In this document: positions 8,371-39,925 of the stretch, piece after piece
Position numbering within the stretch: position 1 is the stretch's first letter
How the letters are laid out: each line of letters opens with the position of its first letter
Assembly (NCBI GenBank): GCA_003990765.1
Contig: RBNJ01000130.1
Location: forward strand, 1-39,925
Origin: Jimgerdemannia flammicorona
Lineage: Eukaryota
Length of the DNA: 39,925 bases
Direction of reading: 5' to 3'
Translations under genes and position numbers: made by a program
The notes under the pieces: model-generated
Databases searched by the model: none
What the model saw: the letters and a program-made list of their open reading frames with translations, nothing else
Told to the model about the DNA's origin: nothing

Positions 8371-8629
8371 GCCATTGTGCAGAAGACTCGCACGTCGTAA
8401 AATACAAGGATTTAGAAGGCTTCTCAAATTGGTATTTCTGCGAATGGTATTCATAATTTCAATTTATGTTCTTCAAACGATTATTTTGGTTGAAGACCTT
8501 CAAATTCTTCGTTTGTCGCCACGTTTCCTTGTGCTACAAACATTCGCATAATTTCCAGTATATTTTAGCGTGACCCGAAAGAAAAGATTCCTTGTCGGAA
8601 AAACCCCCTATTCATTAATACCTTCTATC

Positions 8630-12982: not shown

Positions 12983-13447
12983 TGTAATGGTTCTAGTTTC
13001 TTTAAGAGGAAGCAGCTAAATCTGGAAGTTCTGATTGGCCTAAAGTAGCTCAAAGAGATACTTAAAGATTTAAGTATTCTTGAAGAATTTCTGAGAGAAA
13101 ATATTCTGAGCTTTATTCAGATTGAGAATAAGGATATTTATATATAATCTAAAAGAAAGATCTGGAAGGATCTTGGAAAGAAAGAGAAATGCCAAGAAAT
13201 AGGTTCTTGGCAAAGCTGACAAATACTATTCTACAATGTTCCAAAAGGTTCTATAACTAACTGAGACAAAATACTTAGTGCCAAGGAAAGACAAGAATGT
13301 TCTAATAGTGTCTGAGTATCAAGAGAAGGTTTCTAAGCAAGTAGAAGGTACTAGAACATAGTAGAATATTCAAGAAATAATAAGAAAAGACTGACTAAAA
13401 GATGCAAAAAATGTACTAAGACTAAATATGACTGTGAAATTGTTACA
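12983..13447 (-). repeat. 3' LTR of element B
   Basis: Direct repeat of 18626-19090, adjacent to the PPT. Confidence 0.95.
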
Positions 13448-13779
13448 TCTGTCCCTCCTTAAGAACCAACATCCTCATTGAGTTCTTAGATAATATAAGG
13501 CTAGATATACTTAATAAAAATTTCTCAAACTTAAATTGGTACATTGGTGGAGACTGGTCATCCTCATATAGTGCAGAGGGCCTATTATCAGACTAACCAA
13601 CTGGGAGGGGTTTGAACCCAGCTAGTAGCTTCATTTTGGTAGACTTCTTGTTTATTAAATATTCTGCTAGTTCTAGGGTCCCAAAGTAAACTTTTGATAT
13701 ATAAGGTACTGGTCATTGCTATAAGTTGTCAATAATTCAAAGAAGTCACTATAGAGATTGGATAATGTATTTTATCTTA

Positions 13780-16700
13780 AAGTTTTGAACTAGATCTTGA
13801 GAGTTCTTAAGGTTGACCAGTGGTTCTCAGATAGTATCATATTCAGAATAACCCATTCACTTGACTAGGTATTTAGGACAGTAATAGTAGATTCATTTGT
13901 CAAGAATTTTCTCAGCTTCATACTTGATATGGTCTTCAATAATCACAGGGGTAGAAGGCTTAGAGATTCAACCAGGGTAGAGTGGTGACTGATTCCAGAT
14001 CTTGAGGTATAATATATGAAAGACTGGGTGTACTCTCATGGATTCAGGTAGCTTGAGATGGTAGGAGGATGTAGAGACTTGTTCAGTGATCTCAAAAGGT
14101 CTAATATACTTGGGTTGAAACTTGTTCAAAGAGTGGTTAACTTGAGATTATATCTTGAGGTTCTCAGTAAACAGTAGAACTTGATCTCTAACAGTATAAG
14201 TAACATCACAGCATTTCTTATCAGCATACTTGGCTTGATGCTGTTGAGTCTTCTGAAGGTTCATAGTAGCAATCTTGAGTAGTTTATCTATTTTGTCTGT
14301 AAGGTTCTTAGTGGTTGGGACTTATATTTGACTGGTTTTCTTGAAAGGGAATAGACTTGCAGGGGTCTTGGGATCTTGACCATGGAGTAACTGGAAAGGA
14401 GAAAGACCAGTAGATAATTGGACAACATTGTTGTATACAAACTCTGTATAAGTCAGATAGATGTCCCAATTATCTTACTCATAAGAAATATAGTTTCTAA
14501 GCATTTGTTCTAGAGTTCTGTTCATGCACTTGGTTTGTCTATCAGTTTGTGGATGAAAGGCAGTAGATATGTATAGCCAATTGGGTTCTCAGAGTCTTGA
14601 AGATGGTTTGCCAGAAGTAGCTGGTGAACTTGGGGTCATAATCACTAACAATTACTCATGGTAGACCATAGTGATGGAAGATGGACTTTGAAGAAGATTC
14701 TTGCAATCTCGAGTATAGTAGTATTAGTAGTGGTTGGTTCAGTAACTATAGTCTTGGTCAAGTAGTCAACAAATATGATGATAGCATCAGCACCAGATTG
14801 AGTTCATGGTAGTTGAGTTACAAAGTCCATAGTGACTTGCTTAAACTTCTTGATAGGAATTGACAGTGGTTGTAGCAAACTGACAGGTGCTTGGTTGGTA
14901 GACTTATTGTACTAATATAGATTACAGCTGGATAGTTCTTGATTTCCTTGACCATATTTGGCCAATAGTAGTAGCATTGGATATTCTTGATGGTCTTCTC
15001 AATTCCCAGGTGACTGGCAAGAGAAGAGTTATGGTGTTCTTGCAAAACCTTATAGTATATATTTATGTTTTCAGGTAGATAGACTTGGTCTTAATGATAG
15101 ATCAGATTGTTCTTGACAGTATATGTATCCTTGAGTTCATTCAAGAAAACTCTAATGGCAACTGTGTCTTCTTTATAAGCTTGCCTGATTTGGTCTAGGA
15201 ATTCTGATACTAAGGTGACTTGTATGATTATGGTGAGGTCTGGACACCTTGACAAGATATCTGGTACTACAAGTGTCTTGCCAGACTTGTAGATAATCAT
15301 CAGATTGAAGGTTTGAAGCTTGAGGCTTCACTTGGCTTATAGATATAATAGAGTAGATTGGATATTGATGTACTTGAGAGAATAATGATCAGTAATGACA
15401 TCAAACTCAATATCTTCTAGATAGTATCACCAGTGGTCTAGTGCATATATTATTGCTAGTAGTTTCTTCTCATGAGTAGCTAGCTTTTGTTCAGCTGGAG
15501 CCAGCTTGTGGGACTCAAAAGTAATAGAGTAATGTCCTTTGCCATCATCTTGTAACAGAACTACTCTAATAGCAAAATTTGATACATCAGTAGTGACTAT
15601 GAATTTTAGGCCTTGATCTGTATTATGCAGAACTGGGGCATGGGTCAGGTGGTTCTTGAGTTCTTGAAAGGCTTTTTGACAGAAGAGATTCCAGGTATAG
15701 GGTATATAGTGGTCTGAGTGTGAGGCCTTTCTCATGAGGTTAGTCAGTGGCTTAGCAATACTAGAGAAGTTTCTGACAAAGCAGCAGTAATAGCCAACTA
15801 GACCAAGAAAGGATTAGAGTTCTGTGAGGTTCAACAGAATGGGCCATTCTTCAATTGCTTCTATCTTGTATAAGTCTACTTAAATTTCTTATGCAGAGAT
15901 AATATGGCCAAGGTATTTGACTTGTTCTTTGAAGAATTCACACTTCTTGAGCTTAGTATAAAGCTTGTATTTTCACAGAATCTCCAGGACTATTTGAATG
16001 TATTTGAGGTATTCTTCTTTAGTTATACTAAAGATCAGGATGTCATCAAGATATACCAATAGGAAAATAAATAGTTGGTCCTTAAATATCTTGTTCATCA
16101 GAGTCTGAAATGTGATGGGTGCATTGGTAAGACTAAATGCTAAGACCAGGAATTTGTAGAGTCCAAAGGGGGTCATGAATACAGTCTTGGGAATGTCTTC
16201 TGGCTTGATTCAAATCTGGTGGTATCCTGACATGAGATCTAACTTGGTGAAGTACTTGGTATTCTTGAGAACATCAAAGATTTGATCAATCAAGGATAAT
16301 GGATAGTGGTTCTTGACAGTGAGTTTGTTGAGTGCACAATAGTCTATATATATTTACAGGGTACCATCCTTCTTCTTGATGAATAAGACTGGTGAGCCAT
16401 AAGGAGATTTGTTTGGCTGAATGGCTCCTCATACAAGTAGTTCTTCTAATTCCTTCTTGACTGCTTCTATTTTAAGTGGTGATATACAGTATATGTATTT
16501 CTTGGGTAGTACAGCTCGTGGGGTCAGTTCAATTTCATGATCAACTTCTTGTATTGGTGGTAGGCTAGGTAGCTTATCTGGAAAGACATCCTTGAATTCC
16601 TCTAGTAATAGCTTAATGCTTTCATTGACTGATAGTCTCTTGTCTTATTTCTTAAGGAAGATTATTACAATAAAGGTATGTATTGCCTTCTTGAGTGCTT

Positions 16701-18535
16701 TCTTATACTGTATAGCTGATAGTGTTGCAATCTGGATCTTACTCATGATCTTGTCTGTCTTAATCATAATATTGGCTCTATCTTAAAGTAGGGTGACTTA
16801 ATTCTTATACCAATCAATGTCTGGATTTTATTTCATAAGCCAGGGTTTTCCTAAGATTAGATCATGATCTCCTAATAATATAATCTCAAAGTCTACTCAT
16901 TTCCAATATTTCTGAATCTTGATAGACAGTTTTGTGGCAATTGACTTAATGGGGTGCAGAGTACCATCTGCAGTAACTATACTATTATTCTTGAGTACAG
17001 GCTTGGTAAGGATCTTGAGGTTTTTGATGAGATTCTAATTCTGATTGATGAAGTTCCCTGCAGCTCTGCTGTCTATGAGTATTTGAACTTCTTTTCCTTT
17101 GACTAGGCCTTTGAAAATGAGCATAGCTTGAGCTTGATTTTCACAAAGATTTGCTGCTTGATTAGTGCTACCAAAATCCTTTTGATCTCATTTGGTTTCA
17201 GAGAGTTCTTGGACTTCTGTAATCTTGAGTTGACTGGCTTTTTCCAGGATCATTTGCATGACTCAGTCTCCTTCTTTAACTGTGTAGTCTTGATCCTTCT
17301 GGTTGACAAGCAAGACTTGAACTTGTTCTTGAAAGTCTGGGTCAATGACACCAATGTCTACATCTAAATGATGTTTGATACTGAGTTCTGATTGCAGTAC
17401 AATTCTAGTATAATGTCCTTCAGAACATTGGACTGCAATTCCAGTAGGCACCAGAGTACAGCCCTTGACTGGAATAGTGATTTGTTTGACTGAGTGTAGA
17501 TCAAGACCAATGACTTCTTCTGTTTAATATTGAGAAACCTGGACCTTTGGATGAAGCTTCTTGACCTTAAGTTGACTAGTAGTGAAATTGACAGGTATGT
17601 TCTTGGACAATATGGTGACTGGTCTTGAGGGTTTGCTAGTCTTCCTAGAATATTTGGTTACAATGTGTCCTGTTTGGTAACAGAAGAAATAAGCTCTAGA
17701 TTTCTTCAGACAGTCCTTTTCTTCAGGGGTGAGCTTGGTATTCTTTTTATTCATAGTGTCTATATCCATTGATACCAGGCCAACTGTCCTTGGTTGATTT
17801 CTGTGATGGTTCTTGAAGTAGTTCTTTTTGTAGTATTCTGATTCAAAGTGGTTGTCAAAGATAATGATATCAAATCTATTGGTAATTCTCATGGCTTCAT
17901 CAAGAGTTTTGGACTCTTTTAGCTTAATCTTGACTTATGTATTTCTCTTCAGACCTTGGATATAGCAGTCTATCTTTTCATCCTCAGATACTGCTGGTAG
18001 TTTAAGTAGGATTGACAAGAATTGTGCATTATAGCTTTGTATAGACTTAAGTTACTTGACATTTGCTAGCTTGTCCCTGGCTAGCTTTGTGGCATTAGTA
18101 GGCTTGAACTGCTTGTGAAGAACTCTCTTGAAAGCTTCCTAATCTCTAATTTATGCATATGAGTGTACAGATATAACCATGATATAATTATGCCACCAGA
18201 TAGCTACATTTCCTCAGAGAAGTGTGGTGGCAAATTGGACTTACATATCATCTTCCATTCTTGTGAGCTCGAAGTATTTGGAAGGTCCATGTATCTGTAG
18301 ATAGTCCTCCTTGATGGCTATCAAAGATATCTGGCTTGAGTGGCTTGAAACTGACTATTACTACAGCAGGATGTAATGTTCTTATAGTTTGTGTTTTCTG
18401 ATATTCTAGTTGTGCTTTGAGTTCTTGAATTTGGTGGGCCATGGCATTGATCATATCTTCTATATTAAGCTGCAATTCTCCTACTTCTTCTATAGTAGAG
18501 GGGTCTGGCTGGTAGACTGTCTCTTTGTAGCTCAT
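13780..18535 (-). pseudogene. gag-pol relic of element B
   Basis: Knuckle relic YFFCYQTGHIVTKY; PR ILIDSRAAGNFI; RT LLVYLDDILIFS; RNase H TTDVSNFAI...HEKKLLAIIYAL; integrase EHHNSSLASHLG...YYWPNM; chromodomain YEAEKILDK...YLVK*MGY...*EPLVNL (13780-13922). Many transition-derived stops. Confidence 0.95.
17200..17570 (-). pseudogene. dUTPase domain of element B (between gag and protease)
   Basis: LKVKKLHP...GLDL...VPTGIAVQ...GVIDPDFQEQVQVLLVN...VKEGD, matching trimeric dUTPase motifs 1-4. Confidence 0.9.
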
Positions 18536-18625
18536 TTCGAATTTATGTGACTAGTTGTAATTGGTTTCCAAATTCATGTGAGATTTCTTAATAAGACAAG
18601 ATATAATGACACTACTGCTACCAAG

Positions 18626-19090
18626 TGTAATAGTTCTAGTTTCTTTAAGAGAAAGCAGCTAAATCTGGAAGTTCTGATTGGCCTAAAGTAGCTCAAAGAG
18701 ATACTTAAAGGTTCAAGTATTCTTGAAGGATTTCTGAGAGAAAATATTCTGAGCTTTATTCAGGCAGAGAACAAGAATATTTATATATAATCTGAAAGAA
18801 AGATCCAGAAGGATCTTGGAAAGAAAGAGAAATGCCAAAAAATAGATTCTCAGCAAAGCTGACAAATACTATTCTACAATGTTCCAAAAGATTCTATAAC
18901 TAGCTGAGACAAGATACTTGGTACTAAGGAAAGACAAGAATGTTCTAGTGGTGTCTGGGCACCAAGAGAAGGTTTCTAAGCAAGTAGAAGATACTGGAAC
19001 ATAGTAGAATATTTAAGAAATAATAAGAAAAGACTGACTAAAAGATACAAAAAATATACTAAGACTAAATATAACTGTGAAATTTTTACA
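18626..19090 (-). repeat. 5' LTR of element B
   Basis: Direct repeat of 12983-13447, adjacent to the PBS. Confidence 0.95.
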
Positions 19091-19887
19091 ATAGTTTAGA
19101 CATTATACTATAGAATATAATAATAGAAAAAATAACTAAAGAGATTAGAAACCACTCAACTAGAAAAATGTAATATAGTATAAAAGACTAAATCCTAATC
19201 TGAAAAAGATTATAAAAAAAACAACAGTAAAGACTATAGTAATTTAGACTTATATCTTACTAAGATTAACTTTAGAAAAATAGTCTACTCTATAGAGAAA
19301 AGAAAGGTAAACAAAAACAGACCAGTCAGAAGGCAGAAAAGGAGAATTGTTTAGAAAGAAGAAACTAAAGATCAGATTGATATACTCTCTCATTCTCTTT
19401 TATCTTTTATCTCTAGAATTGATGAACTGCTGTTAAGATCTGTAGATAAAGAAATAAAGCAAGAGAAATAAGAGTAAGTTTATTTCAAACCCTAAGAAAA
19501 AATATATCTGAAAGATTATACCCTAAGATATTTATAATAAAGTATGAAAAAAAAATTCAAGAAGTCAAGACAGAGATCTCTCTCTTATAGTTCTTATAAT
19601 TAATATCTATAAAACAAACTATTGAAGACCACTAGATATAGTATAGACTAAGTCTTAATTCTATAGTAAGAACTAATACTAATTACTATCCAAGTTATAG
19701 AGAGATATGTATATTAATATCTATCTATATTGAAATATTAATAGATAAAGGTAAAAATTCTCATTAATATAAAAGTAGCTATCTATATCATTATAAAAAG
19801 ATTTCTAGATATTCTCTAGTGGCCCATTGATGGGCCATCTAATCTCAGTATCATAGTAGTAGATAGAGCTTGAACTCAGTTCTTAGG

Positions 19888-21762
19888 TATAAGTATATAA
19901 TCTTCAAGTCATCAAAATTACACATTACCCTCAGAACAAATTCAGAAATCACATATAAGATTACAAAGCTGAGTCAAACTGAAGTTACAGATCATGAAGC
20001 TAAGTCAACTTAAAGTCATAAAATATAAGATATATAGAAATAGAATCTTACTAATTAGAACTAAAAGTATATATGCTGAATATATAATATATTAAAACAA
20101 AGAACTATAACAAACTAAAATCACAATCATAACTCTCAAATATATACTCAGATATGACTACTGAAGTCTATAACTATATCTATGCTAATATTTAGAATAC
20201 TTTTATCAACTGAGCCAAAGTACCTCTACTTTTTATAAATATCCATAGTCTAGTACCTCTCTATTTTATAGAAGTATAATAGAATGCCCATGCCCTAAAT
20301 ATGCTTAGTAAGGCTTACTGAATTAGACAAATCTCAAGCTACTACTAGATCAGCCATCTCTTGAAAGATATAGTTAACCACTATCATGATATAGATATTA
20401 CTAAAATATTACAATACTAGAAACTTATTATTTATAAATACTGAGAACTTTTCTATAAGTATAGCATCTTTATCTTCTGTCTCCAAGTTACTATTACTGA
20501 AATAGTTACTATTCTGACCTATAGCCAAATCAACAATATGGTACAAAAACTTGACTACAAATATATTGAGTATACCCAAACTACCAACAGACCCTTTCTA
20601 TACTCAGATAACTATATTCTGCAAATATCTTAAGTGGGAAATATCATAAAGGATATTTATAATATAATCCAGTTTGATAATAATGAAGCAAAAGACAATA
20701 ATCTCTCTGATACAGATATGACCTCTAGCTAAGAATCTCTGCCAACTCTAATTATTTTGCCAATCTTATTAATGAACTTATAATAGTTCATAACTGACTA
20801 TAAGACTTATTAGAATAATAACTACTAGTATAAATACTAATCTGTATTTATATCTAACTACTTCAACTATAAAAAAGAAATAGAAGAATATAATCTATAT
20901 CTCCAGACAACTCTTAAGATAGAATCAATGACCCTACTTTCTGAATATGAGTGATATGAAGAACAACTATCAGTCTACTATAACTCTACAATATATAATA
21001 CCATAATCTACTAAGGTATACAGATAGTGAATCTGATGAAAGTGAAGATGAAACACCTCTTCTCTATTCATTAATACTATATCTAGTATATACATATATA
21101 AAACTAATGAGGCTATTCTATAAAATGACAACTTTGTTCCAATATACTACTATATGAATAAATAGAGAGATATAATCCAAAAACTGCTCTTCTAGATAAC
21201 TACTTCATTAGAGATAATGTCATCAATAGTAATCTCATTGAAGAGTATCTAGATAGTTTTCTATTAGTATAAATATCCTCTCCCCCAGACCTCAGAAATT
21301 TAGACAAGAATACTGATAAGAATCAGATAAATACTTTCTCATATAAATATCTCTTCCACACTACTCTTAGTATTAACTAATAGTAATATCATAAATAGTA
21401 AATAAACCTATTTAATAATCTACAAACTACTCTTAAATAAATCTACACTATATTAGGTCTCACTTCTAAATAGATCCAGAAATTTCCTAATTGAGTATTG
21501 TTTATAATAATATATCAATTTAACTAAGCTGGTCTTAGTTTCTTAAACTCTCTGAAATAAGAAAATTCTGAATATCTAGAACAAGTCTGAAAAGGACTTT
21601 GGTTGAGATATCAACTCGATCTTAAAATCAATAAGTATAGAGGATATACTCTATATAAAATTGATCTTGATCTTAAGAAAATAGTCTTTTAAAATATCCA
21701 GAACTTCCAGAAATACTCTCTCAGAACTATATAACAGTACTCTAATAAAGTACTTTCTTATA
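19888..21762 (+). repeat. 5' LTR of element C (1875 bp), containing a relic of the U3 ORF from 20154
   Basis: Colinear with 32624-34662. Termini TATAAG...CTTATA are transition-mutated TGTAAG...CTTACA. Confidence 0.9.
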
Positions 21763-23099: not shown

Positions 23100-26000
23100 C
23101 TCAAAATGCAGCCAATAATACCTCTAGATAGAGACTACCCTGTAGCTCCTAGACTCAAACAACTCAATATTATAGTGAAATCCTGATTGCTGAAACCTAA
23201 GTAAAACTCTACAACCTCAAATTTGATATATGTATATAGTAAGGAGGAATTTGAAACCTTCTATACAAAACTCAAGTCACTCCTGAACACTATTGGCCTA
23301 GAATATATTATTAATAATAAATTATGAAATAATATAAGAGTAGACTATTTATTCAATATACTACCAGAATAGTTCACAAAAAAGATCTGAGAACAAAGAT
23401 ATTCTATTAGTTATAATTATCAACAATTATGTCTGGCTAGAATCAAAACTATTGTCAAGTAAATTCTAACAGCTGGATCAATTTTATCTCAAAAACAATT
23501 TCATAATAAGAAAAAATTATGAACTAAGAAAGAAGAACTCAAGCATGAATCATCTAGAGCTTCAGCTACATCTACTTCTTAGATATCTTGAAATTCTGAA
23601 TCTATCCAGCCAAGTATCTTTAAAAAACTCACTAAAGGAGAAAGAAATAAACTCAAAAGAAGTAGAGTATATTTCTATTATCAAAAGATAGGAAATATAA
23701 ATAGTGTCTGTCCAAATTGGAAGCTCTAAATAACAATATAAGCAACTGTTACTACTCTGTACCACCTCAACAATCTGACTACTAGACACTAGACTTTATT
23801 AAGTTAAGAACAATAGCTATAGTCTCAATCAAAGAAAGTCAAAAAAACAGCTAAATATAATCTATATATAGCTAAAGAAACTATTGTTTTCAATCAAGTT
23901 AAGTAAGTCTATATAGGAATTAGCATTCAAATTCTCAAAGAACATATTGGAAGGATATACTATTATAGCAGCCTAGTATTAAAAGGACTCTCAGTAGAAG
24001 GAGGAGTCATAGATAAAGACTATATAGGCAAAATCATTATTCTCATCAGAAACTATAGTTAGATATCATTTAAGATCTCTATCGATATTATATTATTTAG
24101 ATACTATTTGAGAAAATTGAATCAACTCTGGCAGTCAAGGAAGTTCCCAAACTATCTGAGGATCCAAAGGGTTTGACTTATCAAATAAAGCCCTAGAACA
24201 ACTTACTATAAATAAGGAGGAATAATTCTATAGAAAAATAGAAGACAGATTCATATCTAGTGGCCAATATCCTCATGGTATTGAAATATATTTTTTCCAA
24301 ATAATAGATGATTACTTCTCTTGTATCAATGAGTTAGTCTAATAAAGAGCTAATAGAAAGAAACCTCTGATAACTGAAATCATTACTATTGGATCAGACA
24401 AACTACTTACTCTATAAGTTTTTATTAATTGAGCCTCTGTTAAGATTATAATAGACAGTAGTGCCTCAGGTAATTTTATCAATAAAGAAATAGCCAATAG
24501 ACTTAAAGTCCTGATCTCTTTAGTATAATAAACTCAAATAGTTGCTATAGCTGATAAAATCTCTTATATAATTAGTAAGGAAGTCTACAACCTATCCTTC
24601 AGAATTGGTAACTATTGAGTATATATTATCCTCTAAATAGTACTACTTCTAGATAATGAGATTATCTATGGGATACTATGGTTAAAATAAGAAAACCCCA
24701 TAATAGATTGAATGAATCATTCTCTGACTATTAAGAAAGGATACCATAATTTTAAACAGTAAGATAAAAGGGACCCACTCAGCTTTAGCAACCTAGGCTC
24801 AAAGATAATTTATATTAATAAACTATAACTCAAGAAATTAGTAAAGAAATGCTCTCTCTTTGCTATCTCTATATATCTATCTAAAGAAGAACTTAAGAAT
24901 CTCAAAGAAAACTTTTTCAAAGTTGACATTTATATCAGACTTCTACTCTAGAAATTTTGAGACATATTCCTAAAAAAACTTCCAAAAATACTATTACCCA
25001 AACAAGTAGTTGACCATGTGATCAAAATCATTTTAGATATCAAATCAGTCTTTAAGTCAATCTATTATATATCTCTTAGAGAAATTGATATACTTAAGAA
25101 AAAAAATTGATGAACTTCTAGAATAAGAATTTATTAGACCTAGTATATTACTATATAGTATACTAGTTCTCTTTGTTGTTAAGAAAGGAGAAGATCTATA
25201 AATATATATTGATTACTGAGACCTTAATAAATAGACCATTAAGAACTATTGCCCACTATTCTAAATTAATGAAATATTCAATAGGCTTATTAATCTACCA
25301 TTTATAAGCTCTTTTGATCTATAAAATAGCTATTGACAAATTGCCATAAAAGAAGAAGATATCTACAAAACTACTTTCTGAACTTGCTATAGACATTTTG
25401 AGTTTCTAGTTATATTCTTTGGTTTAACTAATATTCCTGCAACCTTCCAGGCTCTGATGAATACTATCCTATATCTATACTTAGATAAATTTGTTATCTA
25501 TATTAATAATATTTTGGTCTTCAGCAAAACTTTGGAGAAATATCTCAAATATCTTGAACTAGTACTACTGAAACTCTGAGAAAACTAACTCTTTATAAAA
25601 CTCAGCAAATGTGAATTCTTTCTAAAGGAAATTTAATTTTTTTGTATATATTATTACTCTCAATAGAATCAAGATAGACTCTAGCAAAATCTTTATAATT
25701 AAGAAATAGCTCAGACTCAAGAATCTGAAGACCTTCAGTCATTCCTAAGATTAGTAAACTATTATAAGTAATTCATTATGAACTTTACTAAGATCATTAC
25801 TACTCTTATCCAACTGATCAAGTATAGTAAAAAAAAAAGGACAACTCTGGACTACAAAGTAAGAGAAAGACTTTAACAATCTTGCTAAATGGGGACCTAA
25901 ATAAGATATAGCCTTTTAAGCTCAGAAAGATATCCTGATAACTACTTCAGTACTTCAAGTAGTAAATTTTGTCCTACTATATAAAGTTATTATCAATACC

Positions 26001-27835: not shown

Positions 27836-28291
27836 CAAACTACTCTGATATCTACTACTACTATACTATATATATTATACTTATAAATACTGTTAAAAGT
27901 ACTCTTATAATTATTATGAGCAAAATTGAAGACTCTACTATATCTTAGCAAAATAAGACAAAAGAAATACTATCTTTCTAGAAAAATAGCAAAATGAAAG
28001 TCAGTCTATTCTCCCTATATCATTGATGAGAAATAAGATATAGATATTTAAGAAGATTCCTTAAAGGAAATTCTCTAGCAGTAAAAATCATTAGAATCAC
28101 TTCCAGTACATAGTATCAAATATATGACCCTTTAATATATGAATTTAATACATTAGACAACTATACTATAAGTATATCACTTTTTGAGAAAAAAGAATAT
28201 TACTAGGCTTTTGACTATCCAAAGGATATAATAACACTAGACCAAATTAGATGACCTTAATGAGGATATCAAAAACTAAAAAGGAGAGAGT

Positions 28292-29167
28292 TATAAGTAT
28301 ATAACCTCTAAGCTACTAAAATTATATATTGCTCTTAGAACAAATCTACAAATTATATAAGATCATAAAACTGAGTTAAATCAAAGTTACAGATTATGAA
28401 GCTGAGTTAACTCAAAGTTACAGAATATAAGATATATTGAAATAAAATCTTACTAATCAGAACTGAAAGTATATATACTGAATATATAATATGTTAAAAT
28501 AAAAAACCACAATAAACCAAAATTACAACTACAACTCTCAAACATATATCTAGATATGACCACTGAAGTCTATAACTATATCTGTGCTAATATTTGAAAT
28601 ATCATTATCAACTGAGTCACAGTATTTTTATCTTTTGTAAATATCCATAGTCTAGCACTTCTCTATTTTATGGAAGTATAATAGAATACTCTGAATATAC
28701 TTAGTAAGACTTACTAAATCTGATAAATATCAAGCTACTATCAGATTAGCTATCTTCTGGAAGATATGATTAACCACTACTATGATATAGATATTACTAA
28801 AATATTATAACACCAGAAATATATTATCTGCAAATACTAAGAACTCTTCTATGAGTATAGCATCTTTATCTCTCACCTCTGAGTTACTACTACTGAAATG
28901 ATTGCTATTCTAATCTATGGCCAAATTGATGATATAGTATAAGAACTCAATTACAAATATATCAAGTATATCTAAACTTCTTGTACCCAAATGACTATAT
29001 TCTACAAATATGTTAAGTAGGATATACTATGAAGAATATCTATAATATAATTCAGTTTGATAATAATGAAGCAAAAGATAACAATTACTCTGATACAGAC
29101 ATAACCTCCAGCCAAGAATCTCTACCAACCCTGATCACTCTGCCAATTTTATCAATAAACTTCATAA
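28292..29167 (+). repeat. Truncated 3' LTR of element C
   Basis: Matches 19888 onward and 32624 onward up to the equivalent of ~33500, then similarity stops abruptly. Confidence 0.88.
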
Positions 29168-29823: not shown

Positions 29824-30289
29824 TATAATGTAGCAGATGCTTACTCTTAAAAGTATGTTGGATTTCTGTATCTTGAAAACTTGATCTTCTCTGACTCCTC
29901 AGAGTCCTTTGAGTTGCAGGGGAGGGTGGATGAGTTCGAAGTGTATCTGCCTGCAGTCTTACTAGTTCCTTTGCTATCTCTTTGCTTTGAACTATTTTGA
30001 TCTGAGGTTTATTCACTCAAAGATACTGGGTTATTTATACAAGTTTGCTAGCTATGAGATAGTTACTAGGTTACATGGCTAGGTTATGAGTTATTTAACA
30101 CTTTGCTAAATATTTCACCAGTTGCGAAATGCTATACTATATCAAGAAGCTCAATCTCACACTTTGCAAAATATTTAGCAAATGGTGGAATTGAGGACTG
30201 CTAACTATGTGGCTATACTACTTTGGGACTGGGTGCGATCAAGTATCTATTCCCTATTTCCTTCATTCAAATCTGGCTATATCATCACA
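29824..30289 (-). repeat. 3' LTR of element D
   Basis: Direct repeat of 38095-38560, adjacent to the PPT. Confidence 0.95.
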
Positions 30290-30326
30290 ACTTCCTCCTA
30301 AATAGATGATCTCATCTCTGAAGCAT

Positions 30327-30788
30327 CTATTCAAACTCCCAAGCTTCAATGGTCTGTATGGTCTTGTATTGTGCGATTTGTTGCATTACTGTTTCCCAAT
30401 GGTGTCACCTGACTCGGTCGAAGTCTGAGGGAGTCACTCCTCACAGGTGGGCTAGTGCTGATTCATCCTCTCAGAATAGCTTGTGGATTCTCTTAGCAAT
30501 AATGATCTGGGAATAGGAGAGCTGGCATTCTGCAATCCAATTCTCTTTAGTCATTTCTGGGTCTTGGTTGAGTACTTGGCCAAGTTTGAAGTACTCTTGG
30601 AATTTATTTCGATGCTGATAGGTCTTGAAGTGTGAGATCTGAGAGAGATGAGTCTGTATGATGCTTTGGATACTGTCATAAGACTCCTCTATGGTTGGAG
30701 GCTTGGTGGTGCACCATTGTCTCTTGATGGCTCTTTGGGCAGTGCTGGTGATCTTGAGTGCCATTGCAGTACTTTTGTTACTGGCCAT
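30327..30788 (-). pseudogene. 153-codon accessory ORF of unknown function downstream of integrase (element D)
   Basis: The ATG overlaps the pol end (CATGGCCAGTAA). The frame continues past three TGA codons to ...IEAWEFE*. Same length and frame as 39260-39721. Confidence 0.8.
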
Positions 30789-32623
30789 GATATTTCTTGA
30801 GTCAGTTTCGGTAAATAGTAGTGGGGATTATTATGTCTGAGGGTTTTCGTAGCCAAAAGGTGGTCCCTTTTATATCTTGCACAAAATAAGGTCCTTCCCA
30901 CTTGGGCTCCAGTTTTCGTGACCATGAAGCTTTAACTATATTCTGATACACCAGAACTTTGTCTCCTATCTTGATAATCTCCAAGGGTTTATGGGTCTTT
31001 TCTGCATTCCTCCATTGTAGTATCTGCACCTTGATTATGTAATCCTCAGCCTTCTTCCTGATTTGGTGTAGTCTCCATATTTCCATGTCCATGCATTTAC
31101 ATATAGCATCTCCATTGGATGATAGGGTTCCCTGAGAACATTCTTCTCTGAACAGCATTTCTCGAGGGGTAAAGTGGGTACTTTGTGATTGGATATCCCG
31201 GAGAGCAGATAATGCTATTGGCAGATAGTGCTCCCAGTTCTCATAGTTATCACAGATCTTGGCAATAATATTTTTGAGGGTTTTGTTGGTCCTTTCTACT
31301 TGTCCATTTCCTTGAGAGTGATATGCTGTAGTCCAAATATGCTAGATCTTATACTTCTTGTAGAGAACTTCAAAGAACTGGTTTACGAATTCTGTTCCTC
31401 TATCTGTAGTTACTTGTGTGGGGGTCTTGAACCAGCAGATGATTTCCTTGTGGAAGAAATTGGTGATTGACTGTGCATTGGCTTCCATAAGGGGTCCTGC
31501 TTCTATCCATTTTATAAAAAGGTCTATAATGACAATGATGTATTGGTTGCCAGTCAAAGTCAAGGGTAGAGGGCTGATTATATCCATTGCAATGTGGGTG
31601 AATGGTACTAGTTCTATGTATGCTGATCCTGGGGCTTGATTTCATTGGTCTTGTTTCTGTTTCTGGCATTTGTTATAGATATTAATGAATTGTCTGATAT
31701 CTTCCTCCATCCCTGGCCACCATATTGTTCTTCTTGCCTTGTCATATGTGTTCATTCCTCCTAGATGGCCAAGTTCATGTACTAATTTCATTGCTTGCTC
31801 CTTCTTATGTTCTGGTATGACTAGTAGTTTTCCTTTCTTCAGTGTTTCTCCATCAGTTTCGAATTGTTTCCATATTCTGTTAATAATTGTTTGTGTCCAT
31901 TCTTCCAGATGTTGGAGCATCTTTCGCTATCCCAGGTATGTGATAATTCCATAGTAGAGCTCCTTATTCATGATGATTTTGTGGGGGTGGGGTCCTTCGG
32001 GGTGTCCGTGAGAGGGCATTGGCATTGGTATTGGTTCTTCCAGAGTGGTGTATAATGGTTACATCATAAGCTTGTAACTTCATTATTCATCTGGCATAGA
32101 TTCCTTTGGGTTGTCTAGTTGTCAGTAGCTAGGTGAGAGCTGAGTGGTCTATTTGGATGGTGAAGTGTCTTCCAGCCAAGTAGTAGTGGAACTTTTCTAC
32201 AGCCCAGATGACTGTGAGGCATTCCAACTTATAGGATTCATATTCTTTTTCAGCTCCTCGGGTTCTGCAGCTGAGGTATGTGATGATATACTCCACTTTA
32301 TCTTTCTTTTGAGCTAGGACTGCTCCTAGTTCTTGTGCACTTGCATCAGTCTGTAGGATGAATTCTTGAGTCCAGTCAGGTCTTCTGAGGATAAGTGCCT
32401 GGGTCAGTCTGACCTTGAGTTCATCAAATGCTTTTTGTTGTCTGCCAGTCCACTGGAACTTGGTATCCTTCTTATTAAGTTTATTGATTGGTCCTGTAAT
32501 ATTGGAGAATCCTCTAATAAATCTGCGATAGTAGGAGGTAAGTCCTATAAAGGCTTGAGCTTCTATAACAGTGGTGGGCCTTGGGTATACTGCTACCACT
32601 TGTATCTTGAGGGGGTCTGTGTG

Positions 32624-34662
32624 TGTAAGTGCACAACCTCCAAGCCACCGAAATTACATGTGACCTCCAAACAAATCTGGAAATCACCTGCTCGATCACG
32701 AAGCTGAGTCAAACCAAAGTCACAGTGCACAAAGCTGAGTCAATACGAAGTCACAGAACACAAGATCTACACAAACGGAATCTTACCAATCAGGACCAAA
32801 TGCATATATACTGAGCACTGAGACATGTCAAAACAGAGAACCAAAACAACATCAACTATAAACTTCCAAACACACAAACATGACCACTGAGATCTACAAC
32901 TGTATCCGTGCTGACATTTGGAATGCCATTGTCAACCGAGCCACACCCCCTCTGCCCCTCATGAATATCCATAGCCTGGCACCCCTCTACTTCGTGGAAG
33001 CCCGATGGAACACCCTGAACATGCTTAGCGAGGCCCACTGAATCAGACAAATCTCAAGCTACTATCAGATCGGCCGCCTCTTAGAAGATATGGTCGAACA
33101 CCACTATGATACAGACATTACCCAGATGTCTCAACACCAGAAGCTCATCACCCGCAAACATCGAGAACTCTTCTATGAGTATAACACCTTTATTCTCCGC
33201 CTCCGAGTCACTACCAGCGAAATGGTTGCTACCCTGTCCTATGGCCAAATCGATAACATAATACAAGAACTCAACCACAAGTACCTCAAATATGTCCAGA
33301 CCACAGACAGAAGCTTCCCGCACCCTGATGACCATATCCTGCAAATGCCTCAAGTCGGATATGCCATGAAGGACATCTATGATATAATCCACTTTGATGA
33401 AGATGAAGCGGAAGACAATAATCCCTCTGATGCCGACATGACCTCTAGCCAAGGATCTCTGCCAACCCTGATCACTCCGCCAACCTTGCCAATGAACTTA
33501 CAACAGTTCATAACAGCATATGAGACTTATTGGGACAATGACCACTAGCATGAATACCAACCCGCATTCACCCCCGACTACTTCAACTACAATGAAGAGA
33601 CCAGAGAATACAACCTGTACCTCCAGACAACCCTCAAGATTGAACCAACCACTCTACTACCTGAGTATGAGCGACATGAACCACAGCCGCCAGCTTACTA
33701 CAATCCTGCAACTCATAGTGCTGTAACCTATAGAAGGTATGCAGACAGTGAATCCAATGAAAGCAAAAACAATACACCCCTCCTTCGCCCACCAACACCT
33801 TATCCAGTGTACGAGACAGACGATGCTATTCTGTGGGACAGAGATGAAGTTCCAATGTATTATTATCTCAGCAAACAAGGAGAAGTAATCCACGAACCAC
33901 TATTCCTAAACGATTACTTCATCAGAGATGATGCAATCGATGGTGATGTCATTGAGGACTACCCAGATAGTACCTAAATCTATAAATAGCCTAGCAGTTA
34001 TAATATAGTTAGATTAGCATTGTACGACGTGACTGTGAACTGACTCAGCAGTCAGATGATCTCTTGACATGTCAGATCACACTTGTACTATGTGACTGCA
34101 TTCCAACTCAGCAAGGCACTTAGTGCTACATCTATATTTAGCATAGTCCAGATAGCTCCTCACTAGTATAAATACCCCCTCCCTCAGACCTCAGAATCTC
34201 AGACTTGAACAGACTCAAAACACAAGAATATTCCTGAATACTTCCCCACAATATCCCTTCACACAACTACTCCTAGTATAGCAATATCATGAATAGTGAA
34301 TAAACCTATTTAATAACCCACAAATCACTCTTAAGTAAATCTGCTCCCTGTTAGGTCCTACTCCTAACTCCATCACGAAATTTCCTAATTGGGTATTGTC
34401 TGCAGCGATACGCCAATTCAACTAAGCTGGTCTTAGTTTCTTGAACTTCCTGAAATATGGAAAATCCTGAACATTCAGAACTAGTCCGAAAAAGGACTTT
34501 GGTTGAGACGTCAACCCGATCTTGAAATCAATAAGTATAGAGGACATACTCCATACGAAATTGATCTTGACTATAAGAAAATGGTCTTCCAGAATATCCA
34601 GAACTTCCAGAAAACCCTTTCAGAACTACGTAATGGTTACCCTAAAAAGCAACCCTCTTACA
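32624..34662 (+). mobile_element. Solo LTR of family C (2039 bp), lightly mutated
   Basis: TGTAAG...CTTACA termini and a perfect 5-bp TSD gtgtg (32619-32623, 34663-34667). Removing it restores D pol (LGHIIN*DGTHT-DPLKIQVV). TATAAATA at ~34168, AATAAA at ~34299. Confidence 0.95.
32880..33977 (+). pseudogene. LTR(U3)-encoded ~365-aa protein of unknown function, with two premature stops
   Basis: Single frame from ATG 32880 to TAA 33977, broken only by TGA 33039 and TAG 33546, each one C>T from a sense codon. Includes track ORF 33090..33548. Relics are present in both LTRs of element C. Confidence 0.85.
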
Positions 34663-35514
34663 GTGTGTGTTCCATCTCAATTGATAATATGGCCAAGATA
34701 GGAGATCTTGATTTCTGCAAACTTGCACTTTTTGGGTTTGATGTAAAGGTCATGTTGTCTTAGTCTCTCCATTATCTGCTGTATGTGCTACAGATGTTCC
34801 TCAGGTGTCTTGCTGTAGATAATTATATCATCGACATAGACCATCATCCATCTTCCTATATCATAGTGAAAGATTTTGTTCATCATTCGCTGGAAACTTA
34901 CTGGTGCATTGCATATTCCAAATGGTATTCGTAGGTAGACATAGGTTCTATCTGGAGTGATGAAAGCTGACTTTTCACTTGCTATATCTGTGAGTCCGAT
35001 TTGGTAGAATCCTGAGTATAAGTCCAAAGTGCTGTAGTACTGTACTTCATCTCCTAGTATTATGAGGATATCATTGATGAGGGGCAGTGGTTGGCAATCC
35101 TTCTTGGTAACCACATTGAGCTTTCTGTAGTCAACACAGAGTCTTGGGGCGAATTCTCCAGGCTTACTACCTTTTTTCAGGGCTAGTATAACAGGTGAGG
35201 ACCAGGGGCTGCTGGCTTCTTTAATAATGCCAGCTTCTTCCATCTGCTTGATTTCTTCTCTAAGCCATTCTTGGTAGACTGGTGGGACAGATCTTGTCTT
35301 CTGATAAATTGGTTCGGTGTCTCCAGTATCTACTTTATGATAGTAGTGTGGGGTCTTTCCTTTGATGTCCTTGAAATCTGTGGCAAGGACATCTTCGAAT
35401 TTGTGGAGTATTTTCTTGAGTTCTTTCTTAAGTGGAAATTTATTTCCAATGGTGTAGCTGTGCTTACTTGTGTTTTCCTCCTTTTTATGCTTGAGTTCGG
35501 TGATCTTGGTGCTA

Positions 35515-35950
35515 GTGAATACTCCTCTTCCTGTGGATCCAAATTCTTTCTTTCCTCTTTTCGTTTCCTCCAGCTTCTTAACTTCTATGATCTTTGGTTG
35601 TAGGATCGAAAATATCAACATTTGCGCTAATCAGTCCTTCTTCTTGACTGGAAATGGAATTGTAGGATTGTGATTCCTAGCAATGAGTAGAATTTCTCCA
35701 GTATAGTCTGAATCAATAACTCCTCCTTCAATTGTGATTTTGCTTCTAGCCAGGCTGCTTCTTGTCTTGAGAATCCCAACATAATCCTTTGGGATGGTCA
35801 TCTCCAGTCCAGTTACAAGTAGGGTAGTTGTCTGGGGTTTCAGTACAGTCTCTTCTACTGTAGTGATGTCCATTCCGGCTGCATTTTCTGACTTGTATTC
35901 TGGCAAGACTGCATCAGGGTAAATCTTTCGAATCTTGATCTTGATTTCTT
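35515..35950 (-). pseudogene. dUTPase domain of element D (between protease and RT)
   Basis: AAGMDI...TGLEMTIPKDYVGILKTRSSLA...EGGVIDSDYTGEILLI...RGKKEFGSTG (motifs 1-5). Confidence 0.95.
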
Positions 35951-38094
35951 CTTCATCATCACTGTCCTCCAGGAGGGCTGGTAGTTCATCATCTTCCTTC
36001 TTCTCTTCTTCCCTGATCTGTTTTTCGAGAGCTTTCTGCCTTCTTTCCTGGTGGATCTTCTTGATTCTGATGGTGCACTGGTAGCAATCATTGACATGCT
36101 CCATACAGTACATCTTGATCCCATGAGGACAGACTCTTTGTGGGGCATAATCTTCTGTGATCTTCTTGTACCATTCTTCTTTACTTATCTATCCAACTTT
36201 CTTCTTCTTTGGAGTAGTCACCATATAAGCTTCCTCTTGCTCACTCTCTTCTTCCTCCATGTTGGGCAGGACTCCTTTGTTGATATTGATGAGAATTCGT
36301 ATCTTCTGTCCCCAGTAGGTGATCTGCATCTTCTGGGCATTGAGATCAATTACTGCCTTGGCTTTGTGAAGCCATTGATTGCCAATGAGAATGTCATAGT
36401 TGGTGGCATTGGTTACAATTACATCTACTGGGATGGTTGCTCCTCCAATCTTGATGGGAATATCTCGGATCTTTCCCAGAGGTGTGGCTCTTGTACCATT
36501 GGCTGTGATGAACACCAGCTTAGTTGCTTCTTCCACATCCCAACCTAGGTGGTCTGCTGCCTTCTTGCTGAGGAGACATCCTCCTGCTCCTGTATCAATA
36601 ATGGCTTCAAAGATTCTATCTTCGATTTGGCATATTGCATAAGCAGAGGTTTTGTAATTATCCTCACTTTCTTCTCCTGAGTCCTCTTGAATGTTATTGG
36701 CCTCAGTTATCTTCCATCCTTGTTTCTTAGTTATTTTGGCAAGTCCAAACCTCATTTGCTGTCTAAATGTTGGGATTTCTGTGAGCTGACCAAAGGTTGC
36801 ATTGACCTTTTGTTGACTGAGGTCCTTGAAGATATCATACTTGAAGGTCTTGGTCTTGCAAAGCTTCTTTTCTTTTTCTCCTTCACTGGCTGGAGTGGTT
36901 CCTTGGATAATATCTTGAACTACTTGTTCCAGCTCTATATCTTGGTCTGTCTCTTCAGCTTGGCTTTCAGTGGCTATTTCTATCTGCTTTTCTACTGAGT
37001 TCTTCTTGGGTCTTCCTGATGATCTCTTGTAGAGTTCTTTGCAAACATTCTTCTTGGTAGTCTGAGCAGGATAGGCCTCCCATTCTTCTTTATCAGAATC
37101 TCCAATTTTCTCGAAGGTAATTATATTAGCCTGCTCCTTGTTTTATATAGCATTACTTGGTTGAGCCTTATACTTGGTTTCGCTCATGCATTCATAGGAG
37201 TAGTGGCCTTCTTCTCTGCAAGTATAGCAGGTGCCTTTCCTCTTGTCTAAGATGGCAGCAAACTTCTGGACAGGGTGGCAGTCTCTTCCTTGAATTTCCT
37301 TTATCACATCTCCCAGGTGAGCAGTCATTTCGGTGAACCTTTTGGCAAGTTTCTCTATTGGATTGCTGTTCTTTTGCTACTCCATAGCTTTTGGCTGAGG
37401 TGTGTTTTGATTGATCATTATGGGTATCTTGATTCTGACTCCTGTGACCCTTTTCATTGTGTAGTCTTATGGATGTCTGGCTATCCAGTATCACTGAGCA
37501 TAGGTAACCTTCTGTAGCAGATCCAGAATCACTGGTGATGAGCGGATGGCCATAGCTATTTCTGGATAGACTCCTTTCATGAAGGTTGCTTTGGCTACTT
37601 GATCTCGGATAGCAGCAGCATAATCTGCAAGGATTATCTGATATCAAATTCTGATATAGAATGTGTTTGGACCCTCGCTTATTCCTTGGTATGTTGTGTT
37701 GAGCTGATCCTTCAGGACTTGCTTGATCTCATCTGTATAATATGTATTTCAGAGCCAGGTCTTCTGTGCTGTCAGTATAGTATCGGCATCATTTTCTGCA
37801 TAGGTTGTGGCTGTGAATGCTGCTCTGGCAGGACCTCGTAGGCTGAAGAGCATGAGGGCTACTTGCTGTGCTGCTGTCAGGGTCCTTATAGTAGCATACT
37901 GCTCAAAATTGTCAATGAAGGTGATGATTGATTTGTCTGAGGTATACATATCTGTGGAATACTGGTGGTCTCATATCCATCTTGTCTGGGTATTGGGGCT
38001 CAGTTTGTATGGTTGTTCAGGTAGGGGTGGTTGTTTGTTGTTTAGCTTGAAAGTGAGGAATTCATCTTGAATCACCAGCCAATGGGCACTAAGT

Positions 38095-38560
38095 TGTAAC
38101 ATAGCGAATGCTTACTCTTGAAAGTACATCGGATTTCTGTATCTTGAAAACTTGATCTTCTTTGACTCCTCAGAGTCCTTTGAGTTGCAGGGGAGGGTGG
38201 ATGAGTTCGAAGTATATCTGCCCACAGGCTTACTAGTTCCTTTGCTATCTCTTTACTTTGAACTATTTCGATCTGAGGTTTATTCACTTGAAGATACTGG
38301 GTTATTTATATAAGTTTGCTAGCTATGAGATAGTTACTGGGTTACATGGCTAGGTTATGAGTCATTTAACACTTTGCTAAATATTTCACCAGTTGCGAAA
38401 TGCTATACTATATCAAGAAGCTCAATCTCGCACTTTGCGAAATATTTAGCAAATGGCAGAATCGAGGACTGCTAACTATGTGGCTATACTACTTTGAGAC
38501 TAGGTGCAATCAAGTGTCTATTCCCTATTTCCTTCATCCAAATCTGGCTATACCATCATA
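38095..38560 (-). repeat. 5' LTR of element D
   Basis: Direct repeat of 29824-30289. Minus-strand TATAAATA at ~38303-38310 and AATAAA at ~38279-38284. Confidence 0.95.
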
Positions 38561-38745
38561 CTATACTATTCTGAACTTTACTACTTTTCATTTGTATTGT
38601 CCACTTAGACTACTTTGGCTTACTTCTCCATTCTTACTATCCATTCTCTATATAGGACAATATATGATATTCTTGAAGTTTTCTTTAATAATTAGTATTG
38701 AAATTTCTATTATTTTGATATCTCAATAATGTGGCTTATACATAT

Positions 38746-39925
38746 TGTAACATAGCAGATGCTTACTCTTGAAAGTACGTCGGATTTCTGTATCTTGAAA
38801 ACTTGACTGTTCTGACTCTCACAGAGTCTCTGGAAGTGGCAGGGGAGGGTGGGTGAGTTTGAAGTGTATCTGCCCGCAGGCTTACTAGTTTCTTTGCTAT
38901 CTCTTTGCTTTGAACTATTTCAATCTGAGGTTTATTCACTCAAAGATACTGGGTTATTTATACAAGTTTGCTAGCTATGAGAGGGTGGCTAAGTAATAAA
39001 TGAGTCATTTGGACTTTGTCGAAACATTTGGACAATGTTTAAACGCTATACTAAATCGGGGTATCCGATTTGGATAATGTCTAAAATTTAGATGATGTCT
39101 AAGAAATTTAGACAATGTCGAAATCGAGGACTGCTAACTATAATGCTATAGTACTTTGGGAATGGGTGCGATCAAGTGTCTATTCCCTATTTCCTTCTTC
39201 CAAATCTGGCTGTACTGTCACAACTTCCTCCTGAATAGATGGTCTCGTCCCTGAGGCATCTATTCAAACTCCCAGGCTTCAATGGTCTGTATGGTCTTAT
39301 ACTGTGCGATTTGCTGCATGACTGTTTCCCAATAATGTCTTCTCACTTTCTCGAAGTCAGTAGGGGTTACTCCTCTCAGGTGGTCTATCACTGCTTCATC
39401 TTCTCAGAATAACTTGTGGATCCTTTTGGCAATAGTGATCTGTGAGTGGGATAGTTGACACTCGGCAATCCAGTCCTCTTTGGTCTTTGCTGGATCCTGA
39501 TTGAGCACCTGTCCAAGCTTGAAGTACTCTTGGAATTCTGCGCGATACTGATAGGCTCTAAAGTGCGAGATCCGAGAGAGATGAGTCTGCATAATACTCT
39601 GAATATCCTCATAGAATGGCTCTATGGTCGGAGGCTCGGTGGTGTGCCATTGTCTTTCGATGGCTCTTTGGGCAGCACTAGTGATCTTGAGTACCATCGC
39701 AGTACTTTTGTTACTGGCCATGGTATTTCTTGAGTCAGTTTCAGTGAATGGTGGTGGAGATTATTGTGCCTGAGGGTTTTCATAGCCAAAAGGTGGTTCC
39801 TTTTATATCTTGCACAAGGTAAGGTCCTTCCCACTTGGGCTCCAGTTTTCGTGACCATGAAGCTTCTACCATGTTCCGATACACCAGGACTTTGTCTCCT
39901 ATCTTGATAATCTCCAAGGGCTTGT
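38746..39925 (-). mobile_element. 3' end of Gypsy element E (sister subfamily of D); LTR at 38746-39222; runs off the window
   Basis: 477-bp TG...CA LTR similar to the D LTR except for a U3 block, PPT at 39223-39233, accessory ORF, and integrase C-terminus (KLEPKWEGPY). Confidence 0.93.
39260..39721 (-). pseudogene. 153-codon accessory ORF of element E (one internal TGA)
   Basis: MASNKSTAM...YFKLGQVL...AKRIHKLF*EDEAVIDHLRGVTPTDFEKVRRHYWETVMQQIAQYKTIQTIEAWEFE*. Many synonymous differences from the D copy. Confidence 0.85.

Follow-up and report, generated by a model that had tools for sequence, protein, structure and literature searches.

The 39,925-nt stretch of Jimgerdemannia flammicorona DNA analysed here (GenBank assembly GCA_003990765.1, contig RBNJ01000130.1, positions 1 to 39,925 of the forward strand; hereafter the window) holds two related long terminal repeat (LTR) retrotransposons of the Ty3/gypsy type, D and E, and we found that the U3 regions of both carry an array of 17-bp inverted repeats upstream of the TATA box. 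The arrays are built on one common scaffold but differ in the core of their half-sites (TTTMGCA in D and TTTNGACA in E). They are probably promoter-proximal sites for a paired (dimeric) DNA-binding protein. Judged from the sequence, they may best be seen as a subfamily-specific U3 control array with a host factor as its reader, an interpretation that we put forward as possible and tentative.

Nine units had been proposed in the first-pass annotation of this DNA, and all nine were present where it had placed them. The D 5' LTR array (38365..38461) has four 17-bp units (at 38365, 38384, 38426 and 38445) with the half-site TTTMGCA(A), and the E array (39008..39123) has five (at 39008, 39027, 39069, 39087 and 39107) with the half-site TTTNGACA. 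The same four units recur in the D 3' LTR array (30094..30190; units at 30094, 30113, 30155 and 30174), where they have decayed further by transitions. Pooling the half-sites gave TTT[C/A]GCA(A) for D and TTT[A/G/C]GACA for E. Both patterns were then counted over the whole window, allowing up to two mismatches, and compared with 100 shuffles. The D-type pattern (TTTNGCANNNTGCNAAA) gave nine matches against a shuffle mean of 2.55, a count reached by none of the 100 shuffles, and seven of the nine lay within the D LTRs (38365, 38384, 38426 and 38445; 30094, 30113 and 30155). The E-type pattern (TTTNGACNNNGTCNAAA) gave seven matches (shuffle mean 2.39; 2 of 100 shuffles reached seven), five of them at 39008-39123. 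The types did not cross: we counted zero D-type matches in the E array and zero E-type matches in the D arrays.

When the nine units of the D 5' LTR and E were pooled, 48 of 63 arm positions paired (0.26 expected per position), a figure that is not equivalent to nine independent trials because the units share descent. Weightier than this count is that the common form of each type is palindromic at three core positions despite the differing cores. In addition, the arms in E reach 8 bp in most half-sites (A at position 8 in 8 of 10). Arm position 4 paired in 4 of the nine units, and such a degenerate position is more in keeping with a protein half-site than with a stem. A motif-blind scan for 17-mers in which 5 or more of the 7 arm positions pair returned 989 matches in the window, with clusters of equal density elsewhere, and palindrome density at this threshold was set aside as uninformative in AT-rich DNA; at a threshold of at least 6 of 7 arm pairs, the E array was the densest cluster of the whole window.

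The arrays lie in U3 on the minus strand, inside LTRs that a three-LTR alignment placed at 38095..38560 (D 5' LTR), 29824..30289 (D 3' LTR) and 38747..39222 (E 3' LTR), all on the minus strand. A polypurine tract (AGGAGGAAGT) stands directly before the 3' LTRs of D (30290-30299) and E (39223-39232) and adjoins the array-proximal LTR end. The TATA box (TATAAATA, minus strand) was located by alignment at 38955..38962 in E, 38304-38311 in the D 5' LTR and 30032-30039 in the D 3' LTR, with AATAAA about 26 nt downstream of it. The arrays are upstream of this box by 46-168 bp in E and 54-150 bp in D, so that the U3 location and the distance of up to about 170 bp from the TATA box that had been claimed for them are borne out by the positions of the polypurine tract and TATAAATA. 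Repeated U3 motifs upstream of a TATA box are thus found here, as in the enhancer and promoter repeats of LTRs. We also observed a 13-nt direct repeat around the TATA box of D (38292-38304 and 38332-38344; AGATACTGGGTTA and AGTTACTGGGTTA), the distal copy of which is missing in E, where the alignment has a 9-column gap.

Within the arrays, the units are clustered as 2+2 in D and 3+2 in E, with a period of 18-20 bp. E has one extra 19-bp unit: the gap in D in the alignment is exactly 19 columns (unit plus spacer), and the cluster spacing grows from 61 bp in D to 80 bp in E, that is, 61 plus one 19-bp unit. Read from the sequence, the half-site centres are 10 bp apart within a unit and 9 bp apart between neighbouring units, and this spacing of 9-10 bp would put all half-sites on one helix face. 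Unit length, the TTT/AAA ends, the 19-bp period and the anchor motifs are all kept between D and E, and the arrays do occupy homologous places, since their flanks are conserved and can be aligned, as can an anchor motif inside them. What changed is the core, and it changed as had been described, with the geometry kept: a CA/AC swap in one arm is mirrored by TG/GT in the other.

Blocks that did not change are interleaved with the units. TAGTATAGC, ATGACTCAT and TCGAT are conserved among or beside them, which argues that the cores were specifically replaced. The 9-mer TAGTATAGC (sense; minus strand) aligns between the unit clusters at 39045..39053 in E and 38402-38410 in D, and the same 9-mer recurs on the distal side of the array, at 38483-38491 in D and, with one change, at 39145-39153 in E. 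Also distal to the units is the conserved block GCAGTCCTCGAT, while on the TATA side the array is adjoined by the conserved block AAATGACTCAT and by the perfect palindrome ATGAGTCAT, aligned at 39000..39008 in E, 38357-38365 in the D 5' LTR and, with one transition, 30086-30094 in the D 3' LTR. ATGACTCAT / ATGAGTCAT would correspond to the optimal AP-1/Gcn4 palindrome, which would suggest a host basic leucine zipper input to the LTR. One further palindrome, of opposite polarity (AAATCGG-GGTAT-CCGATTT), was seen only in E, in the inter-cluster spacer at 39053-39071; the D sequence there is unrelated.

A comparison of D and E along their shared length showed that the array is their most diverged stretch. 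Identity was 89.7% in the C-terminus of integrase (IN), 80.6% and 82.6% in the two segments of ORF3 (an accessory open reading frame downstream of pol), 86.5% from the end of ORF3 to the LTR and 87.1% in the distal U3; it fell to 47.4% in the array and 64.7% between the array and the TATA box, and was 84.6% from the TATA box to the LTR end. Transitions and transversions numbered 22:20 in the array, whereas transitions prevailed elsewhere, for example 18:1 in IN and 49:12 in ORF3 codons 1-105, and a ratio near 1 suggests that the array was rebuilt rather than worn down by ordinary mutation. The statement that the rest of the LTR is highly similar stands in part: most of it is at 85-87% identity (about 13-15% diverged outside the array), but there are two other diverged patches, one being the 65% stretch between the array and the TATA box and the other lying near 38814-38854, where 40-column windows gave 60-70% identity.

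Furthermore, the centre of ORF3 proved to be a second divergent island. As a synonymous test, we took the share of codons with identical amino acids that carry a synonymous change between D and E. This share was 8/52 in the IN C-terminus, 3/25 in ORF3 codons 1-30, 32/72 in codons 31-127 (30407-30698 in D; 39340-39631 in E) and 6/24 in codons 128-153, so that the centre has about three times the synonymous divergence of the IN C-terminus and the ORF3 ends (IN versus codons 31-127, Fisher p = 0.0008). Between this centre and the array, about 200 bp are at 87-92% identity, and a single swapped cassette therefore does not explain the two islands. The pattern indicates a mosaic, apparently recombinant history in which D and E would have a fairly recent common backbone and a much older ORF3 centre and U3 array; the age of the backbone in pol is judged from 204 nt and one lineage pair, and the islands may coincide by chance. 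Recombination between co-packaged RNAs is routine in retroelements, and two islands that resist homogenisation would be the expected product of a matched protein-site pair.

How might such arrays work and change? We propose that they would serve as promoter-proximal control sites in the U3 of this dUTPase-carrying Ty3/gypsy family, each unit being an inverted repeat with 7-8-bp arms and with half-sites on one helix face, and that the D and E lineages would have placed TTTMGCA and TTTNGACA, respectively, on one common scaffold. The core change most likely began in one unit, from which duplication or conversion of units would have carried it to the rest of the array. We prefer such a spread because it would be far more economical than 16-20 separate substitutions or parallel transversions, and the extra unit of E shows that duplication operates in the array. 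Two related host proteins with equal dimer geometry would then read the D and E arrays, respectively; we infer that these proteins are of host origin, that they would bind the units as dimers and that their binding would affect transcription.

Several points were counted in favour of a host reader. U3-targeted hypervariability that defines subfamilies has been documented for Tnt1/Retrolyc1/Retrosol (PMC1838419), a likely host basic leucine zipper site of the AP-1/Gcn4 type adjoins the array, and Pfam, PDB and fold searches gave no DNA-binding signature in ORF3. Glucocorticoid and oestrogen response elements are inverted repeats of equal geometry that are read by paralogous factors and differ at two half-site positions. 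Since paralogous receptors read repeats of the same geometry, a private factor need not be invoked to account for a new core on an unchanged scaffold, and a switch between paralogous host factors of the same dimer geometry would look alike.

Several points weigh against this interpretation. No host factor could be named, and the resemblances to NFI (TTGGC-N5-GCCAA) for D and to high mobility group (HMG)/Sox cores (CAAAG/CAATG) at the unit centres are partial and short. None of the units is a perfect palindrome (3-6 of 7 arm pairs are complementary), and decay has affected each of the three LTR copies. The arrays are confined, within the window, to the family that carries ORF3; the related element C has neither. 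Moreover, unusual divergence is seen both in the array and in the centre of ORF3, which a purely host-driven model does not predict. Host factor and ORF3 both remain candidates because two lineages only were compared.

Known LTRs offer partial likenesses to an array read by the host. In the Tnt1/Retrolyc1/Retrosol elements (Ty1/copia, Solanaceae), as in D and E, the coding regions and most of the LTR are common while U3 is sharply different (PMC1838419). An accessory ORF is missing there, unlike here. Their U3 boxes are reportedly direct repeats read by host stress pathways, and not inverted repeats of the same geometry with swapped cores. Steroid-receptor elements, such as those of the mouse mammary tumour virus LTR, are alike in being U3 inverted repeats with a 3-bp spacer and two-position half-site differences at identical geometry, but their half-site sequences do not match the D and E units, and nuclear receptors are not known outside animals. 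Subfamily-specific U3 divergence is the usual way in which LTR subfamilies diverge, and the D and E arrays may be a variant of it.

The second candidate reader is encoded by the elements themselves. In this reading the ORF3 protein, as a dimer, would act on the U3 palindromes as an activator or anti-silencer, with one matched set of protein and sites in the D lineage and another in the E lineage; we regard this as somewhat less likely than a host reader. ORF3 is a real gene. It lies at 39263..39721 in E and 30330..30788 in D (both minus strand, 153 codons), begins 14 nt past the IN stop and ends about 40 nt short of the LTR, and so takes the place downstream of pol that accessory ORFs of the Tas/Tax type occupy. 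The E copy has one in-frame TGA, at codon 106 (39404-39406, minus strand), and the D copy has three, one at the same codon (30471-30473, minus strand) and two more downstream; in all eight homologues that cover this column, codon 106 is a sense codon. Public protein sets hold nine homologues, of which one is intact at 153 aa and 80% identical to each window copy, the rest coming from short contigs. A profile search of 1.84 billion representatives returned 3 clusters, all from ORF3's own family, with no fused or longer forms among them. The comparison of D with E gave a dN of 0.10 and a dS of about 1.0, and by this ratio of about 0.1 strong purifying selection acted on the ORF3 protein as the two lineages diverged.

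The same comparison gives no hint of a reading surface. The two proteins are 80% identical and their roughly 30 differences are scattered along the length, with no cluster in an identifiable reading surface; ESALAH/EAVIDH and SDFDR/TDFEK, which the first-pass annotation had singled out as local differences, are not special, as ESALAH of D is the common family form. ORF3 is absent from element C and from the other repeats of the window, so that only one family in the window combines ORF3 with the arrays. A protein-guided scan and a conserved-LTR-pattern scan of bacterial and archaeal contigs found no further ORF3 or LTR relatives in DNA.

The predicted structure argues for pairing. A homodimer prediction for ORF3 passed, with a score of 0.47 over three runs, whereas the best of three controls scored 0.00; at least 70% of contacts agreed between the runs, and partner pLDDT (the predicted local distance difference test score) was at least 63. 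In calibration, the mark was reached by 21/30 solved homodimers and 0/23 solved monomers from microbes, and by 17/29 homodimers and 0/30 monomers from eukaryotes, but by 1/7 of those eukaryotic homodimers without an older solved relative. The predicted interface, residues 40-94, covers the invariant core of the family (residues 42-85). A symmetric ORF3 dimer, as modelled, fits palindromic sites, though many small helical proteins pair.

Searches for a DNA-binding fold were negative. Pfam gave no family for three ORF3 homologues at E up to 10 and nothing for the ORF3 pieces of the window at E up to 0.01; a PDB sequence search gave a single chance-level match, an asparaginase (E 0.062); and neither these two nor the profile search revealed homology to a known transactivator family. 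Look-alikes in the ESM Atlas were nameless or unrelated clusters. Two AlphaFold2 models were all-helical and of low confidence (mean pLDDT 51.2 and 58.6), and Foldseek found no match at E 0.001 or better with either of them. The DNA-binding domain of fission yeast Sap1 supplied the top three fold matches of model 1 (E 0.33-0.86, template modelling (TM) score 0.19-0.27; TM 0.20-0.25 is given with the best match, at E 0.33) and was dropped, as with model 2 it appeared at rank 37 and below (E 7), where the best overall match had E 2.6. Helices 81-88 and 92-113 look like a helix-turn-helix by eye only; profile and fold searches gave no matching helix-turn-helix, and the dimer model puts residues 84, 87-90 and 94 in the interface. 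The isoelectric point of the intact homologue is 6.8, which also counts against DNA binding. The proposal that the accessory ORF reads the arrays is thus upheld as far as it concerns a real, selected and family-confined gene with predicted self-pairing, but not as far as a DNA-binding signature is concerned.

Other elements supply precedents. Tas (Bel-1) of foamy viruses is likewise the product of a small 3' accessory gene and a sequence-specific DNA-binding activator of its own U3, binding specific U3 and internal-promoter sequences (PMC3185757). ORF3 has no sequence or fold similarity to Tas, and host and element class differ; an internal promoter or extra sites upstream of ORF3, a feature of the Tas type, were not found. 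VANC21 of the Arabidopsis VANDAL21 transposons binds short motifs that are arrayed in the non-coding parts of its own family; these arrays vary between related copies, and the units within a repeat diverge together (PMC5735166). The likeness to VANC that had been drawn holds for this pattern, since the D and E arrays also differ between related elements and show repeat turnover, but goes no further: VANDAL is a Mutator-type DNA transposon with 9-mers in the same orientation (YAGTATTAY), whereas D and E are Ty3/gypsy elements with palindromes, and Pfam matched neither of the VANC domains DUF1985 and DUF287 in ORF3. The 21-bp Tax-responsive repeats of human T-lymphotropic virus and bovine leukaemia virus are imperfect, few in number and palindromic at their core; they lie in U3 upstream of the TATA box and show some virus specificity, and Tax acts through host CREB and does not read DNA alone. 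These viruses are alike in combining U3 repeats with a 3' accessory protein and different in that no homology was seen.

LTR retrotransposons of bdelloid rotifers share the order of protease, dUTPase, reverse transcriptase (RT), RNase H and IN and, downstream of pol, have extra ORFs that are particular to each family and as a rule expressed through spliced mRNAs (PMC5408684). The ORF3 types described for them are env-like, GDSL, DEDDy, coiled-coil and transmembrane, and none of these is tied to U3 motif arrays. A narrow literature search, covering titles and the starts of abstracts, met no case of an LTR-retrotransposon factor acting on its own LTR, which is no proof of absence.

Weighed together, the family-confined co-occurrence with the arrays, the predicted interface over the invariant core, the Tas and VANC precedents, and two islands of deep divergence in a younger background, as would be expected if mismatched recombinants fail, speak for ORF3. 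The coupling of ORF3 to the sites rests on one lineage pair, and the separation of the islands and the lack of a recognisable fold speak against it. That ORF3 is a self-encoded, dimeric, sequence-specific reader of operator-like U3 repeats, with matched 'specificity types' that persist while recombination homogenises the rest, appears doubtful to us. The idea that ORF3 co-evolves with the arrays is alive and gains some strength from the mosaic and from the predicted dimer, although it is not demonstrated.

It is improbable that the arrays are a hypervariable, neutral repeat patch, created and homogenised without selection by quasi-palindrome templated mutation, a known mechanism, and by slippage during reverse transcription, with the difference between D and E due to drift. 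The units within one array are alike, and the added 19-bp unit and the transition-to-transversion ratio noted above point to duplication and to replacement over point substitution; furthermore, if neutral divergence equals the dS of ORF3, 47% identity would be about the neutral level. Against drift, the two lineages agree in how long the units are, in their outer bases and period, in the spacing of the clusters and in where the array stands with respect to the TATA box, although the cores differ; conserved anchor motifs are interleaved with the units, and in most half-sites of E the palindromy extends to the eighth arm position.

Least likely of all, and rated low by us, is that the palindromes act as nucleic-acid structure, folding into hairpins either in genomic RNA, within its 3' U3, or in replication intermediates that are single-stranded, with roles in packaging, export, stability or strand transfer and with the paired arm changes as compensatory stem changes: both arms did change together and the sense RNA folded better than its shuffles (z -4.5 for E, -4.3 for the D 5' LTR and -3.4 for the D 3' LTR; 0, 0 and 1 of 200 shuffles as good), but any palindrome array must fold well and the z-scores do not discriminate, the predicted fold is not conserved (one long hairpin pairing both clusters in D, several local hairpins in E), arm position 4 is unpaired in 5 of the nine units with most mismatches forming no wobble pairs on the sense strand, and the stems are short and AT-rich.

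The two elements that carry the arrays share one orientation, the E 3' LTR lying 186 bp upstream of the D 5' LTR. Element D (29824..38560, minus strand) is a degenerate Ty3/gypsy element with 466-bp LTRs and with gag CCHC, protease, dUTPase, RT, RNase H, IN and ORF3; its Pfam domains follow one another along the minus strand as zf-CCHC, aspartyl protease, dUTPase, RVT_1, RT_RNaseH_2, Integrase_H2C2 and rve, which is the Ty3/gypsy order. The LTR termini in the sense orientation are TGTGA...GTTACA, with the TG...CA ends of Ty3/gypsy elements. The body of E extends past the end of the window. Element D is dead, with many in-frame stops in gag-pol, and an alternative genetic code was rejected because TAA, TAG and TGA all interrupt this frame. 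Its two LTRs are 93% identical by self-comparison and by the three-way LTR alignment, with 35 aligned differences; transitions account for 33 of these, and C>T or G>A changes for 26. The nearest named relatives in pol come from both fungi and animals and are 35-44% identical. A nested insert of about 2 kb, an unrelated AT-rich repeat, splits the RT of D at 32623-34648; the family of this repeat has three copies in the window, the other two at 19885-21748 and 28289-29167.

Another Ty3/gypsy element with dUTPase, element C (12983-19090, minus strand), has LTRs of 465 bp that are 92.5% identical to each other. An inverted repeat of another kind, 27 nt long (TATTCTACAATGTTCCAAAAG.TTCTA), occurs in its U3 and contains GAAnnTTC-like words, which suggests that each family has its own U3 repeat vocabulary. 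In D (35631-36188) and C (17263-17523), both on the minus strand, dUTPase is encoded between protease and reverse transcriptase, an order also described for bdelloid rotifer LTR elements (PMC5408684). Enrichment of dUTPase with retroelement domains has been reported in Entomophthora muscae (PMC11105155). A dUTPase/RT remnant at 23832-25822 (plus strand) is heavily degraded, with about 27% GC and 28-45% amino acid identity to relatives of the pol of D, and is an old, strongly AT-shifted copy. At the window edge, direct repeats at 1-374 and 1240-1600 (78% identical, about 1.2 kb apart) are possibly the LTRs of a small or truncated element. An ORF at 8552-9508 (plus strand; 318 codons, 44% GC) had no Pfam match and no homologue at near lengths in a set of 5.8 billion proteins.

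The general view is that LTR retrotransposons rely on transcription factors of the host. Regulators that an element encodes itself and that recognise specific sequences are known in complex retroviruses (Tas, Tax) and in one plant group of DNA transposons (VANC). The family of D and E offers a compact test case, in which a regular short array with a lineage-specific core stands beside a conserved orphan protein that is predicted to pair. If a host factor reads the array, the family would show cleanly how a promoter can pass from one factor to a related one when all the sites of an array change in concert. If ORF3 reads it, retrotransposons would be able to evolve private regulatory circuits with switchable specificity, ORF3 would represent a new small DNA-binding fold, and the matched types of protein and site would be a eukaryotic retrotransposon analogue of phage immunity regions, Tas or VANC.

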